Source of the DNA: a virus | Virus record (IMG/VR): IMGVR_UViG_3300050343_000277 | Location: 3,105 to 67,104 of that record | Strand: one strand, 5' to 3' | Length of the DNA stretch: 64,000 nt | Shown here: one piece after another, positions 31,624-38,712 of the stretch | Layout of the letters: every line of letters starts with the position of its first letter | Position numbering within the stretch: the stretch's first letter is position 1 | Notes under the pieces: model-generated | What the model saw: the letters and a program-made list of their open reading frames with translations, nothing else | What the model was told of the DNA's origin: nothing | Database searches by the model: none | Made by a program: the position numbers and the translations under genes

Positions 31624-32018
31624 TTAAAGAGTATTATTTTTAGGCTTGAAGGTGAGTCGCATCTCTCCACCTAATGGGGTTTCACCATTTATTTTTTCTG
31701 AAAATTCTACCGTTGGTTCTTCTTCAGGCTGCATGGCAAGCCACTCTTCTTCAGCAGCATCAAGCTTGTGAGGAAGAGTTGCGTAAAACTTACGTGCCTG
31801 TATTAAACGCCTTAAGCGTTCAGCATTACCTAGAGTGTCAAACGTAAATATCCACTGACCATCGTCAGGGATGTTTAGATCTTTTTTCCTGGCTTAAGTG
31901 ATTTCAATGTATGAAATACAAGCTGAATGATTGAATTGTCTTTCAGGGGACTTAGAGCAATGATTTCACTAGCTGCCGCCAAGATGATCCAAAATACTGC
32001 TGATTCAAGAATAGCCAT
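31624..32018 (-). CDS. holin-like membrane peptide (31875..32018, 47 aa) with predicted -1 frameshift extension to 31624 (~131 aa)
   Basis: MAILESAVFWIILAAASEIIALSPLKDNSIIQLVFHTLKSLKPGKKI*; A_AAA_AAG at 31887-31881 plus hairpin; -1 frame open for 85 more codons. Confidence 0.65.
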
Positions 32019-32047
32019 AACATGTTAGTAACTACTCCTATTCTATA

Positions 32048-32158
32048 AACCACGCAAACTGCACTTAACCACGCTCATCCCTATAAACTTATCCCCTTAT
32101 TCCCTCTCTATAGAGATTTATATATGCAGTTTATAGAGAGTAGTGTAGTAAGCGTGGT
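32048..32158. repeat. long-range inverted repeat element, copy B
   Basis: Reverse complement of copy A core (33/34 nt). Confidence 0.85.
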
Positions 32159-32228
32159 ATTGAATTATCTTGTTGCCAGCGACTCCAAAACAGCTATAGT
32201 CTTAGTGGGCAAATGATTGCATATATAA

Positions 32229-32453
32229 ATGACTAAAGGATTATTGCGACCAGCAGAGGTCTGTCAGCTACTTGCTGTTTCAAGTAAGACTCTGCAGCGG
32301 TGGCGTCACTCAGGTCGATTGATGAAAGGAGTGCATTACCAGCAGTTTGGTAGTCACACCATTAGGTACGACAAAACTTGGATGCTCGATTTTGCTGAGT
32401 CTGGTGGTCGAGGCAGTCACAAGCTGAAGATTGCCGAGTATCTCAGACACTAA
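32229..32453 (+). CDS. excisionase/AlpA-like HTH protein
   Basis: LLRPAEVCQLLAVSSKTLQRWRHSG...IRY; convergent with the integrase. Confidence 0.8.
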   Translation: MTKGLLRPAEVCQLLAVSSKTLQRWRHSGRLMKGVHYQQFGSHTIRYDKTWMLDFAESGGRGSHKLKIAEYLRH

Positions 32454-34026
32454 TTGAGCTAGCGAGCTGGGCCATCAACTGAGCCTTTTCAGCAACACTC
32501 ATGGAATTAATCATGGTGCTCAGGTCGGGCTTGCCTTCTACCTTATCCATAAGAGGAAAATTGACTACACCTAAGTACTTGCTTCTAGTAGTGCTTTCTG
32601 TATCGCCAATCCAAGTAGCTACCTGCTTGCAGCTGTACTGACCATGATGAACCATTAATGAGACATAGGTGTGCCGAAGGTTATAGGGCCTGCGGTAACG
32701 AACACCTGAATAAGCACATGCCTGCATAAAGTACCTTCTGAAGTTATGCCAATCAAACGGAAGCCTAAAGTCATCTTTTGCCTTTGGTCCCTGAAATACT
32801 AAGTTTTTACGCCAGTCTCTATTTGTCATGCATTCCAGAACTGGTGGTAATGCTGCCTTTATTGCTTTGGCGAACAGGTCTTCAAACTCAGGCACATAGG
32901 AATTCAGCAAAGGCTGATGCTCACATCCATTCTTGACGCATTTGAAACGCTGTTCAGGTTCAATATGTAATCTATTCCTTCTATCAACTCCAAACTCGAA
33001 AAATACAGGCTGACCATCTAGAACAAACTTCTGTGCAGCAGGTACATGAGTGCCAATTTGATGCCCTTTCCACAGCCCCATAACGTGGCTCCACCTCAAC
33101 GCCAGTACTTCGTTTGGGCGACTGCCTGTAGATAGCAACAACGCAAATAACGGGAAGTACGGCTTCAAGTGCTCATGACGTAAGAATGCTTTGGTTAGCG
33201 CTGTGCATTCTTCTTGTGTAAATGGCTGAGGGCGTGAGTTCTCGTCTTTCAAACGATTATCAGCAATTATCGAATCAACGCGCTTACGTTCATTGTTAAT
33301 AGGGTTGCCTCGGCCTTCGCTGTCAACAGCGCCCCAGTACTGCCCTCGCCTGACACCAGTTGACTTAGGAAACTTGGCACCTCTTGATAGAGCGGCTGAT
33401 AGAAGAGCGAATGCTCCTCTTAAGGTTGTATAAGCACGGCCTGCCTTTATCCATTCAAAGTGCATCTGGTCAGCGATGTCTTCATCTAGATCTTCTGCAT
33501 TGATATGGCCAAAGAATTCTCCATTCTTACTTTCCATTCTTAGCAACGTGTAAGCGTCTGCTCCATATTTATCTCTTTGATTATCAGATCCTGTCTCCTC
33601 TGACATATACCAACGCAAGCAATGTCCTAAAGTTCCGTGAGGATAATTGCGATTAATGTGCTTACGCTTCTCATGTCTAACGTTAAGTTCTCCCATCCAG
33701 TAGCCATTCTGCATTTCTTCCAAAACCCCTTGGAAGAGCAAAAACTTCTCTGGAAATTTTTGCAAGTATTTTAGTGCATCTTCTTTGCTTGTAATCTCTA
33801 TCGGGCATTGAAGATCAAGACTACGAGCAACTACTGGTCGTGCTCGTGAGTGATCTCTTGCTCGGAGACGGAAGCTTCTTGAGTTGCTTTCAATCTCTAA
33901 CGCCAAAGAGCGTGACTTGCCGTGACGGGTAGGTAGATCGACTTTATAAATTTGTCCTTTTGCAGGAGCCATAAGCTGAGACCACTTGGGAGCTATTTCC
34001 TCCACCGGATGTACTTGACGTGGCAT
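32443..34026 (-). CDS. int: tyrosine recombinase/integrase
   Basis: TGSRPNEVLALRW (R), VKNG (K), YNLRHTY, WIGD and SKYLG (Y). Confidence 0.92.
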   Translation of the reverse strand: MPRQVHPVEEIAPKWSQLMAPAKGQIYKVDLPTRHGKSRSLALEIESNSRSFRLRARDHSRARPVVARSLDLQCPIEITSKEDALKYLQKFPEKFLLFQGVLEEMQNGYWMGELNVRHEKRKHINRNYPHGTLGHCLRWYMSEETGSDNQRDKYGADAYTLLRMESKNGEFFGHINAEDLDEDIADQMHFEWIKAGRAYTTLRGAFALLSAALSRGAKFPKSTGVRRGQYWGAVDSEGRGNPINNERKRVDSIIADNRLKDENSRPQPFTQEECTALTKAFLRHEHLKPYFPLFALLLSTGSRPNEVLALRWSHVMGLWKGHQIGTHVPAAQKFVLDGQPVFFEFGVDRRNRLHIEPEQRFKCVKNGCEHQPLLNSYVPEFEDLFAKAIKAALPPVLECMTNRDWRKNLVFQGPKAKDDFRLPFDWHNFRRYFMQACAYSGVRYRRPYNLRHTYVSLMVHHGQYSCKQVATWIGDTESTTRSKYLGVVNFPLMDKVEGKPDLSTMINSMSVAEKAQLMAQLASSISV

Positions 34027-34214
34027 CTAATCAACTCTGAAAAGCAGAATTGAGGCCAAGTCAGTGGGTGAAGTTGGCGGTAGTTGTCTCAGTTTGACCT
34101 GATTTGCCCTACCACTTAACAGTTGAGATCCCAGTCTATGACTTGTTTTATGCAACTGTGTGCACAAAATGCCATTTACATGACAAGCTAGTCATAGCCT
34201 GCGATTCTGAACCG

Positions 34215-37065: not shown

Positions 37066-37209
37066 ATTAATATTTTTAAACTCTATATTTATTGTAATGG
37101 GTCCGGTTTCCCTGCAATAATTGCAACTGCACGTTTGTAAAAGTAACAATCAGTTTTATTAGCTTTTTCAAGTGCTTCTTTAACTTTGACCCAATTGTCT
37201 CTCTCGTGT

Positions 37210-37485
37210 TTATCCATTGTCTGTAAGGGTAAGAAAATCCATCTCAGCATGCATTTGATCACTTAGAGCACACACTTGTGCACAAGCACCTAAAATTAAC
37301 CCACGCTGATTTGGGCTAAGTGGTGCTGTTTCTGCGTCTTCGGATAAGACATTAGAAATATCACCTAAGCACATAATAATTGCAGGTAATCCCCACTTTT
37401 CCACTAAGTTGTGAAGTACAGACAATAAGGGGCTTTCTCCACTTTCTACAGCTTTCCAGAAGGTAGTACGTTCTTCGGGTGTCAT
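37210..37485 (-). CDS. hypothetical protein
   Basis: 91-aa ORF. Confidence 0.7.
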   Translation of the reverse strand: MTPEERTTFWKAVESGESPLLSVLHNLVEKWGLPAIIMCLGDISNVLSEDAETAPLSPNQRGLILGACAQVCALSDQMHAEMDFLTLTDNG

Positions 37486-37543
37486 AATAAAGACTCATTT
37501 ATTATATTGTAGTGGTTAGAATGCTTAAGAATAGAAATATAAA

Positions 37544-38254
37544 ATGGCTAATCTATCGTTTAAAGAGTTTGAAAACTTTTTCAAGTATTACAACTCAGAA
37601 GCTCAACAGAAGGAAGGTATTCGGATACTGTATGGGCAAATGAGGGATATATTGAAAGATAATGAACATGCTTGGGTTAAGACTTACCGTGACAAGCTTG
37701 AGGTTACAAGCAGCACCATATTAAGTGTGCCATTTCAAAGTCAAAACGATAATTCTTCTGGAACGGGATTTAGAGAATGCTTCTCAAGCAGCATGGCCAT
37801 GGTCGCCATGTACTACGGAAAGATTGATAACGATGACGATTACAACGCGATCCGTAAGCAATATGGTGATACAACAGATGCACAAGCACAAGTTAAAACT
37901 TTGAAGTCACTTGGTCTTGACGCAGAGTTTAAATTTGATGGTACAACTCAAACATTGAAAGATGCTATTGATTCAGGAAGACCTGTAGCAGTGGGCTGGT
38001 TGTTTGAAGGACCAGTCAGTTCGCCTTCAGGTGGAGGCCACTATTCAGTAATTATTGGATACGACGATGAGAATGAAACATGGATTGTAAATGATCCAAA
38101 TGGAGAAGCCTCACTTCGCAGTGGAGGATACACAGCTAATTTAGATGGTGCAGGTATAAAGTACAGCTACAAAAACTTTAACCCACGTTGGACTGTTGAA
38201 GGAGAAGGCACCGGTTGGTATATGGATGTAAGTGATCCGAGCGCAAAAAAGTAA
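37544..38254 (+). CDS. peptidase C39-like (papain-fold) protein
   Basis: VPFQSQND, ECFSSSMAM (Cys), GGGHYSVIIGYD (His), VNDPNG (Asp). Confidence 0.85.
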   Translation: MANLSFKEFENFFKYYNSEAQQKEGIRILYGQMRDILKDNEHAWVKTYRDKLEVTSSTILSVPFQSQNDNSSGTGFRECFSSSMAMVAMYYGKIDNDDDYNAIRKQYGDTTDAQAQVKTLKSLGLDAEFKFDGTTQTLKDAIDSGRPVAVGWLFEGPVSSPSGGGHYSVIIGYDDENETWIVNDPNGEASLRSGGYTANLDGAGIKYSYKNFNPRWTVEGEGTGWYMDVSDPSAKK

Positions 38255-38286
38255 AGGCGGGAGCTCATGTTTCTGAGCCTTCCCGC
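38245..38286 (+). other. -1 programmed ribosomal frameshift signal
   Basis: A_AAA_AAG (38245-38251), 5-nt spacer, then GCGGGA-GCTCA/TGAGC-CT-TCCCGC stem-loop (38257-38286). Confidence 0.82.
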
Positions 38287-38712
38287 ACATCACAAGCAGG
38301 AATTGACCTTATTAAGTCCTTTGAGGGCTTAGAGCTTGAAGCGTACTATTGCGCTAGCTCGATACTCTCGATTGGATATGGCCACACTCAGCATGTGTTT
38401 GAGGGTCAAGTCATCACCAAAGATGATGCGGAGGAGCTATTACGTAAAGACCTTATGTGGTTCGAAGAGCAGGTTGTCAAAATTATTCTGCCTGTCCTTA
38501 CTCAACATGAGTTTGATGCAATTGTCAGCTTTGCATTTAACGTAGGTAGTAGCGCACTAGAAAACAGCACTTTCACTCGACGCATAAATGACGGCGAGAA
38601 CAAAGCACTGTGCTTTCAACAGGAATTCCCTAAATGGGTGAATGGGCCGAACGGGCCTCTCCCCGGATTAATCCGAAGGAGAGCCGCTGAAATTAAGCTA
38701 TCTGCTAATTAG
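38251..38712 (+). CDS. GH24 (RrrD-like) lysozyme domain, predicted to be expressed as a -1 frameshift fusion to the C39 peptidase
   Basis: TSQAGIDLIKSFEGLELEAYYCASSILSIGYGHT lies upstream of the first GTG (38395); FDAIVSFAFNVG, GLIRRRAAE. Confidence 0.85.
   Translation, partial: VKAGAHVSEPSRTSQAGIDLIKSFEGLELEAYYCASSILSIGYGHTQHVFEGQVITKDDAEELLRKDLMWFEEQVVKIILPVLTQHEFDAIVSFAFNVGSSALENSTFTRRINDGENKALCFQQEFPKWVNGPNGPLPGLIRRRAAEIKLSAN

Follow-up and report, generated by a model that had tools for sequence, protein, structure and literature searches.

The window considered here is a stretch of 64,000 bases from the 67,104-base IMG/VR virus record IMGVR_UViG_3300050343_000277, which is linear and estimated to be 85% complete. 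It carries two genes, an endolysin gene on the plus strand and, 5.5 kb away on the opposite strand, a gene for a small membrane peptide, in each of which an open reading frame (ORF) runs in phase onto the heptamer A_AAA_AAG and closes at once or one codon later, and in which the -1 frame continues from the heptamer through a conserved domain. We refer to the membrane-peptide gene as carrying site 1 and to the endolysin gene as carrying site 2, and consider it likely that each is a programmed -1 ribosomal frameshift site of the dnaX/IS3 type, independent of the other. A preliminary description of this DNA had proposed two such cassettes, each with a Lys-Lys heptamer, a stop within 0-1 codons and a start-less downstream part, and this layout was confirmed at both places. 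The features concerned are as follows (aa, amino acids; nt, nucleotides).

37544..38254, plus strand: frame 0 endolysin ORF of 236 aa, ending GCA AAA AAG TAA; predicted short isoform
38245..38251, plus strand: slippery heptamer A_AAA_AAG of site 2, in phase with frame 0
38252..38254, plus strand: frame 0 stop TAA abutting the site 2 heptamer, the same layout as in relatives
38245..38712, plus strand: -1 frame ORF of 155 codons plus stop, with a linker and a complete GH24 lysozyme; predicted C-terminal part of a ~390-aa long isoform
38257..38286, plus strand: 3' stem-loop beginning 5 nt after the site 2 heptamer (-19.0 kcal/mol); candidate stimulator
31875..32018, minus strand: frame 0 ORF of 47 aa, predicted short product of site 1, ending GGA AAA AAG ATC TAA (protein end KPGKKI)
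31881..31887, minus strand: slippery heptamer A_AAA_AAG of site 1, in phase, with the stop TAA (31877-31875) one codon on
31624..31887, minus strand: -1 frame ORF of 87 codons plus stop, beginning KKDLNIPDDGQW..., with a helical hairpin domain and a GETPLGGEMR tail
31845..31877, minus strand: local hairpin after site 1 (-13.3 kcal/mol); weakly supported as a stimulator

The frame 0 endolysin ORF matches Peptidase_C39_2 in Pfam (8.3e-16) and the endolysin family phrog_10051 (6.9e-76). A helical N-terminal domain, about residues 1-55, is followed by a C39-like cysteine peptidase of papain fold, whose catalytic residues Cys79, His166 and Asp184 are invariant in the alignment. The AlphaFold2 (AF2) model of the peptidase (predicted local distance difference test, pLDDT, 88.9) resembles C39 peptidase domains and the pseudomurein endoisopeptidase PeiR in fold, and a sequence search of the PDB with the peptidase alignment gave 0 matches. 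The lysozyme encoded in the -1 frame covers positions 1-125 of the 125 positions of Phage_lysozyme PF00959 (1.5e-37), so that the window endolysin, with two predicted hydrolase domains and their catalytic residues, appears to be a modular phage endolysin. Single-chain forms of this combination exist, since one 405-position profile, phrog_3617, spans both the peptidase (4-229) and the lysozyme (234-402). Of note, the GH24 domain of the window group reads AYYCAS at 38320-38345 (plus strand), with a Cys where S-PM2-type lysozymes have an Asp (AYPDP), a position that we take to be the second acidic position of GH24. The ~55-aa N-terminal domain is common to all these cyanophage endolysins, whichever catalytic domain they carry, and a start-less lysozyme would therefore gain it solely by fusion.

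The first ATG, GTG or TTG of the -1 frame at site 2 is a GTG at 38395, downstream of the catalytic FEG motif. The stem-loop behind the heptamer has a z-score of -2.14, with an equal or better fold in 8 of 200 shuffled sequences. Among eight representatives of site 2, seven have fold z-scores of -2.1 to -4.2 and a hairpin starting 5-7 nt past the heptamer, the exception being S-SRM01, in which the lysozyme has its own ATG. In start-less loci of the S-PM2 type, folding energies lie mostly between -10.6 and -28.4 kcal/mol and the stems begin 2-7 nt past the heptamer, whereas loci with their own lysozyme start mostly reach -3.9 to -12.7 kcal/mol; L174-L176 depart from this pattern, with a GTG beside the heptamer and yet a fold of -13.8 to -16.8 kcal/mol. 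The 3' arm of the stem consists of the codons of a conserved G-V-(D/E)-L-I motif, and among relatives the hairpin structure is kept while its sequence differs. In 17 loci of one stem class, 98.7% of the cells pair and four pairs show compensatory changes, a result reached by none of 500 shuffles; slid controls pair in 30-48% of the cells and have no compensatory changes. By its pattern of conservation, the site 2 hairpin behaves like a frameshift stimulator that is weak or lost in most relatives with a start of their own. Site 2 combines the elements by which a -1 cassette is recognised, namely, an in-phase X_XXY_YYZ heptamer, conserved start-less coding sequence in the -1 frame and a covarying 3' structure.

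The closest IMG/VR relatives of the window endolysin, L008 (85%), L009/L010 (66%), L011 (65%) and L094 (58%), keep the in-phase A_AAA_AAG, an immediate TAA or TAG, the start-less -1 lysozyme and the hairpin, the latter built from four distinct stem sequences. L011 additionally contains an in-frame TAA inside the peptidase at about 2335-2337 (NDPNG*ASL, with a Glu in relatives), which may be a nonsense variant or an assembly error; its site 2 is intact. In L095, C_CCA_AAG replaces the heptamer and is followed by a hairpin of -18.3 kcal/mol. On a broader scale, the best 80 of 513 peptidase loci of the S-PM2 type include 59 with a downstream lysozyme, of which 56 have A_AAA_AAG with the lysozyme in the -1 frame, one has A_AAA_AAA, one has a GTG start without the heptamer and one is fused through an A7 run. 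As a control, 20 of the 21 S-PM2-like loci without a downstream lysozyme were inspected (13 unique tails): AAAAAAG is absent from the final 21 nt ahead of the stop in all of them, and their -1 frames extend over just 1-48 codons, none of them being long. With regard to the peptidase loci nearest to the window, the best 80 of at least 585 comprise 38 with a hydrolase upstream in the same ORF, 33 with the peptidase only, 6 with too short a flank and 3 with the -1 form, and the -1 arrangement is thus a minority in this set.

T4-like cyanophages show the same junction. In S-PM2, p153 ends GCA AAA AAG TAA and a start-less lysozyme then lies in the -1 frame; GenBank describes p153 as 'hypothetical' and p154 as a 72-aa 'putative lysin', and the records of S-CAM7 and S-SRM01 split the endolysin likewise. 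At this junction S-CAM7 has U_UUU_UUU within a T8 run, and S-SRM01 keeps the heptamer with an ATG overlapping the stop. ACG-2014f gp209 (NC_047713 150596-151813) is fused in frame and retains an in-phase A_AAA_AAG in the linker (L025 2205-2211); all 45 records of this type are at least 95% identical and count as one lineage. Here the -1 frame closes one codon on (KKV*), and 5 nt downstream begins a GGAGGG/CCCTCC hairpin, as a mirror image of the window, and a -1 slip would yield a truncated, peptidase-only product in the manner of dnaX. In DSL-LC03 (L032, OR003938 9330-10771), the peptidase and the lysozyme are encoded by separate genes, each with a copy of the N-terminal domain.

The 47-aa product of site 1 consists, according to its hydropathy, of one hydrophobic helix (segment 1-25) and an amphipathic helix. 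In the -1 frame the first ATG, GTG or TTG is an ATG at 31734, past the conserved part, and a slip would add about 85 aa to the membrane peptide. The local hairpin has a z-score of -1.46, and 22 of 200 shuffles fold as well. A model of a fused homologue (pLDDT 74; predicted template modelling score, pTM, 0.35) has a hydrophobic helix at residues 7-22, an amphipathic one at 29-44, a helical hairpin at 61-100 with pLDDT of about 90-97, and a disordered tail bearing GETPLGGEMR; a fold search with it against viral structures gave nothing with E below 1. The site 1 product has no match in Pfam, its PHROG matches (phrog_22542, 2.6e-23, and phrog_15106) are families without known function, and the protein Atlas returned for the short product just nameless clusters of 48-51 aa with scores of 0.83-0.84.

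A profile search of IMG/VR provided 59 loci related to site 1. In 57 of them an in-phase A_AAA_AAG is followed by the -1 ORF, one (L053) has G_GGA_AAA and one is truncated at the end of its contig; between heptamer and stop there is one codon in 50 loci and none in 7, and none of the 59 is fused or arranged in the +1 sense. Amino-acid conservation begins right after the heptamer (KK[DEG]L..IP.DG.W). The phages S-CBS1 (gp22/gp23) and KBS-S-2A have the same organisation, with a small ORF, an in-phase A_AAA_AAG, a stop one codon on and a -1 ORF reading KK(G/E)LIP.DGRW. A protein database gave 22 matches, and among the 18 sequences retrieved three are single ORFs whose junction reads ...KPAKKDLNIPDDGQW..., identical to the predicted transframe product; two others begin with a Met at NIP, and the remaining ones are gene-caller truncations. 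A match of the site 1 profile to S-SRM01 (E 0.002, inside a 338-aa ORF) was judged spurious. The GETPLGGEMR motif also ends a single-ORF membrane protein of 128-132 aa (phrog_3316) near the endolysins of ACG-2014f and S-CAM7.

The preliminary description had assigned both cassettes to lysis genes. Site 2 does lie in an endolysin gene; for site 1 the link is one of position, the gene standing directly upstream of an endolysin-like gene on the same strand in 37 of the 59 loci, as it does upstream of the endolysin gene in S-CBS1 and KBS-S-2A. Among the other loci, the next gene codes for an HNH endonuclease in 13, as in the window, an endolysin-like gene lies on the other strand in 2, and the flank contains neither in 7. 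Upstream, 34 of the 59 loci encode an 81-aa protein that combines a hydrophobic helix with a coiled coil. The short product has the form of a holin, being small, with at least one predicted transmembrane helix and a charged C-terminus; in Pfam, PHROG and the Atlas it belongs to no described holin family. From gene neighbourhood we infer that the site 1 gene is part of the lysis module, and synteny makes a holin/antiholin-like pair of short and long forms its most likely role. A complex prediction for the site 1 soluble domain with the endolysin N-terminal domain scored 0.00, which is no evidence either way.

The proposed mechanism can be outlined as follows. At site 2, most ribosomes would terminate at the TAA at 38252 and release a 236-aa protein made of the N-terminal domain and the cysteine peptidase, while a fraction would slip back by one base on A_AAA_AAG, aided by the stem-loop 5 nt on, and enter the lysozyme frame, giving an enzyme of ~390 aa with two catalytic domains. 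As there is no start codon before the catalytic Glu, the lysozyme would be made solely as a fusion and thereby inherit the N-terminal domain. A like slip at site 1 would turn the 47-aa membrane peptide into a membrane-anchored protein of ~132 aa, with a soluble helical domain and the conserved C-terminal motif.

Several observations weigh against programmed frameshifting at these sites, or show that some relatives do without it. At site 2, the lysozyme frame of L095 contains an ATG 8 codons ahead of the heptamer, and the shift is dispensable in S-SRM01, L206/207/245, L219, L234/235 and L240, where the lysozyme has its own ATG or GTG, as well as in ACG-2014f and L230 (A7 in the DNA), where peptidase and lysozyme are fused in frame. 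It is likewise dispensable in two site 1 proteins, P0008 and P0011, which have their own Met at the NIP motif. The 3' hairpin that the preliminary description had placed at both sites holds for site 2, where it covaries, and is not consistently conserved at site 1: in 40 unique relatives the downstream structure has a median background percentile of 0.18, with 35% in the lowest tenth, and the hairpin was not upheld there as a conserved stimulator. An Rfam scan of 31500-38800 (E up to 1) found no frameshift element, just a tRNA and a sub-threshold CyVA-1, and none of the sequencing runs listed with the region is RNA. Near-duplicate IMG/VR loci inflate the counts as independent cases, the unique downstream sequences numbering 40 for site 1 and 45 for site 2. 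Finally, slipping on cyanobacterial ribosomes and tRNA-Lys, its efficiency and the roles of the isoforms are inferred.

Both breaks fall in homopolymer runs, and L011 has its additional stop inside the peptidase, which could point to sequencing errors or to recent frameshift mutations in decaying genes. The region is present in 20 sequencing runs from 13 studies, and the contigs of four runs from four studies have no inserted or deleted letters across 31500-38800, site 2 being bridged without gaps in 4 of 4 runs and site 1 in three of those listed; with no indel in four independent metagenome assemblies, the length of the A6 run is genuine at both sites. More than 100 loci, at 43-85% protein identity, share this break, as do cultured phages whose genomes come from different groups. 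We see a negligible chance for an artefact or pseudogenes, a reading already refuted as far as sequence data can refute it. The long proteins might instead be read from edited messengers if the RNA polymerase added one A within A6; each site is a run of A's, the same junction carries a T8 run in S-CAM7, the A7 of L230 restores the frame in the DNA, and the listed runs with the region include no RNA that would speak to it. However, 57 of 59 site 1 loci and 56 of 59 site 2 loci retain both the final G and the codon phase, and runs of six are short for efficient transcriptional stuttering. Furthermore, G_GGA_AAA (L053) and C_CCA_AAG (L095) hold just five or three A's and, like U_UUU_UUU (S-CAM7), keep X_XXY_YYZ in phase, which argues for tandem tRNA slippage and not for homopolymer stuttering; a covarying hairpin 5-7 nt downstream is a hallmark of ribosomal stimulation. 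Transcriptional slippage is, in our judgement, distinctly unlikely.

It could also be that the downstream ORFs are translated alone, by non-canonical initiation or by termination and reinitiation, the heptamer reflecting a mere Lys-Lys constraint, and relatives that clearly use own starts overlapping the stop (ATGA/GTGA) right after the heptamer, together with P0008 and P0011, which begin with Met at the NIP motif, lend this some substance. Yet the window and most relatives have no ATG, GTG or TTG between the upstream stop of the -1 frame and the conserved residues, amino-acid conservation starts at the heptamer itself, hairpins are strong mostly where a start codon is lacking, and natural fused ORFs reproduce the transframe junction. 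A free lysozyme would moreover be deprived of the N-terminal domain, of which DSL-LC03 has a second copy in its separately encoded lysozyme. Separate translation appears very improbable. It is the phase-locked heptamers with non-homopolymer variants, and the covarying hairpin that is weak in most own-start relatives, that favour -1 ribosomal frameshifting over these rivals.

The preliminary description went further and proposed one co-regulated lysis system, in which the shared signal could set the stoichiometry of the lysis proteins or tie lysis timing to the translational or nutrient state of the host. On this reading the two cassettes would have been selected jointly, with the Lys-tRNA state of the host as one possible input. 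The identical heptamer in two lysis-associated genes of one phage and the adjacency of the site 1 gene to the endolysin gene in 37 of 59 loci favour such a link, as does the joint occurrence of both sites in the window and G001 (97% complete) and, as variants (L055 and L095), in G011. Nevertheless, each site occurs alone in complete genomes: S-CBS1, KBS-S-2A and G007 (100% complete) have site 1 without site 2, site 2 is present in S-PM2 and G010 (100% complete), where no homologue of site 1 could be detected, and ACG-2014f and S-CAM7 have a single-ORF relative of the site 1 long form. Relatives also exchange A_AAA_AAG at one site for other heptamers, a start codon or an in-frame fusion. A_AAA_AAG is the commonest bacterial -1 slippery sequence, found in dnaX and IS3, and being generic, its sharing needs no special explanation. 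The co-inherited twin system is not supported by this comparison and we regard it as unlikely; judging from these distributions, the sites share a mechanism and are inherited separately, as independent uses of one generic signal. That the slip is coupled to the nutrient or Lys-tRNA state can only be conjectured, and it is doubtful that cyanophages set their lysis programme by recoding, with both isoform ratios answering to the Lys-tRNA decoding of AAG. If this were true, lysis timing and wall-degrading capacity would track the translational or nutrient state of the host, site 1 would be a holin/antiholin-like pair differing at the C-terminus, and site 2 would set the ratio of the peptidase-only to the peptidase-muramidase form.

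Elsewhere in the window, AAAAAAG is not enriched, with 18 matches against 21.7 +/- 4.6 expected, and a frame 0 ORF closing at most one codon after the heptamer together with a -1 frame of at least 85 codons is found at 2 of these 18, namely, sites 1 and 2. A third in-phase A_AAA_AAG lies at 20434-20440 (plus strand) inside the VapE-like primase/helicase ORF 19373-21595; its -1 frame stops after 8 codons and the following 60 nt fold with a z-score of -2.9. Its sole DNA-matching relative is 99% identical, G007 and G011 being without a match. Another in-phase copy, at 2468-2474 (minus strand), precedes by 5 codons the end of a 68-codon open frame, with a -1 frame of just 19 codons and a z-score of -2.3 for the 60 nt downstream.

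Three further features of the window deserve mention.

30644..30871, minus strand: 75-aa protein, hydrophobic helix at the N-terminus followed by a coiled-coil-like remainder (weak match to phrog_1296, holin, E 0.0062)
30471..30647, minus strand: free-standing 58-aa ORF, homologous to the N-terminal domain of the endolysin (hhalign probability 95.6%, E 1.3e-8)
4317-5402, plus strand: psbA-type photosystem II reaction-centre gene (Photo_RC 5.8e-89)

The 75-aa protein, a weak holin candidate, is kept downstream of site 1 in window-like loci and belongs to the same strand block. So does the 58-aa ORF, compared by hhalign with columns 6-61 of the peptidase alignment A3 and also conserved in window-like loci. 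An HNH endonuclease gene (31177-31572, minus strand) lies directly downstream of the site 1 gene; loci of the S-CBS1 type instead have a related HNH gene behind that of the endolysin. Other proteins of the window are a ribonucleotide reductase, the VapE-like primase/helicase, a family A DNA polymerase and a terminase (weak match). The best protein matches of the endolysin are 106 phage records, named Synechococcus (92), Cyanophage (13) and Acaryochloris (1). Given the psbA-type gene and the endolysin's best protein matches in Synechococcus phages, the window is treated as part of a cyanophage genome; a megablast of 31500-38800 found no phage in GenBank that is closely related at the DNA level. 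With its 3' 31 bases, the tRNA-Ala of the phage has 30 exact matches in genome contigs, mostly of Verrucomicrobiota with a few cyanobacterial metagenome-assembled genomes, and with this predominance of Verrucomicrobiota no host is called from them.

Between the two sites, the contigs of 4 of 4 metagenome runs break or branch at 32125-32162 and at 34315-34387, their loose ends running into other sequences; over the tRNA-Ala gene the depth increases, and an A>G variant is common at 34356. The integrase/excisionase block 32129-34364 resembles a cassette set between sequences common to other genomes. The sub-threshold CyVA-1 match at 34426-34456 (plus strand; 22.1 bits against a gathering threshold of 41.4, E 0.28) comes shortly behind the tRNA-Ala gene and is probably due to chance.

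In dnaX, A_AAA_AAG with a 3' stem-loop a few nt downstream leads to two isoforms that have a common N-terminus and are made in a fixed ratio. The tau/gamma -1 frameshift of E. coli dnaX serves as a control in the preprint 10.1101/2025.10.02.679949. The window sites resemble dnaX in the heptamer, the 3' stem-loop and the predicted isoforms sharing their N-terminus, and ACG-2014f mirrors it further, frame 0 giving the long form and the -1 frame stopping after one codon. In contrast to dnaX, the shifted frame of the window gives the longer product and the frame 0 stop abuts the heptamer, no upstream Shine-Dalgarno-like stimulator is evident by eye in the window nor is there an Rfam match, and the genes are those of a phage endolysin and a small membrane protein.

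Among phages, -1 frameshifting is used by the tail chaperones G/GT and for C-terminal extensions of capsid and tail proteins, of which in-frame-fused relatives exist. As in these genes, a conserved -1 slip near the end of an ORF would add a C-terminal domain to a fraction of the molecules; those genes are structural, whereas here the added part would provide a lysis enzyme with a second catalytic domain, or a membrane peptide with a soluble one. A capsid frameshift in an archaeal virus is an example, described in PMC11375127. Site 1 also invites comparison with the lambda S105/S107 holin-antiholin pair, in which a single small membrane-protein gene of the lysis module gives two products sharing their transmembrane part (as predicted for site 1) in a ratio set by translation. 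The lambda gene has two start codons, and its products differ by 2 residues at the N-terminus. Site 1 would instead rely on a -1 slip that adds ~85 residues at the C-terminus, its products being holin candidates.

With regard to lysis genes, the PRFect paper PMC10885494 states that expression of the MS2 lysis gene depends on a frameshift in the coat gene and mentions a lactococcal phage lysin specified by a pair of genes that overlap; the genome announcement PMC5658483 proposes for Alteromonas phage H4/4 a -1 shift from the endolysin gene into an internal virion protein, and PMC9671017 lists putative frameshifts near endolysin and holin genes of Streptomyces BI phages. As described there, none of the cases is a peptidase-lysozyme slip, belongs to the site 1 membrane-protein family or stems from a cyanophage. 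In a search of open-access and bioRxiv texts, frameshifts were found described neither for a cyanophage endolysin nor for the S-CBS1 gp22/23 family, although this does not prove that no description exists. The mechanism is a textbook one, and what appears to be new is the classes of genes concerned and how widely the endolysin case extends among cyanophages: programmed frameshifts of phages are known mainly from structural genes and are predicted here in two genes of the lysis module, the endolysin case reaching the model cyanomyovirus S-PM2 and dozens of uncultured marine phages. Because the GenBank records inspected split these genes, the predicted two-domain enzyme escapes both annotation and endolysin mining. 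Little is understood of how cyanophages control lysis, and the site 1 family represents a candidate two-form regulator of it.

Further close counterparts are the one-ORF cyanophage endolysins, which share the N-terminal domain, the C39-like peptidase and GH24 or glucosaminidase domains with the window. In S-CBS2, S-CREM1, PSS2, S-EIVl and S-CRES2, a hydrolase is followed by the peptidase within one ORF, and in ACG-2014f the peptidase by the lysozyme, no recoding being needed in either order. Together with the putative frameshift forms, they belong to a natural series in which a single junction is found as a frameshift site, as an own start, as an in-frame fusion or with a duplicated N-terminal domain, and which allows a direct test of the selective value that a fixed ratio of isoforms has.

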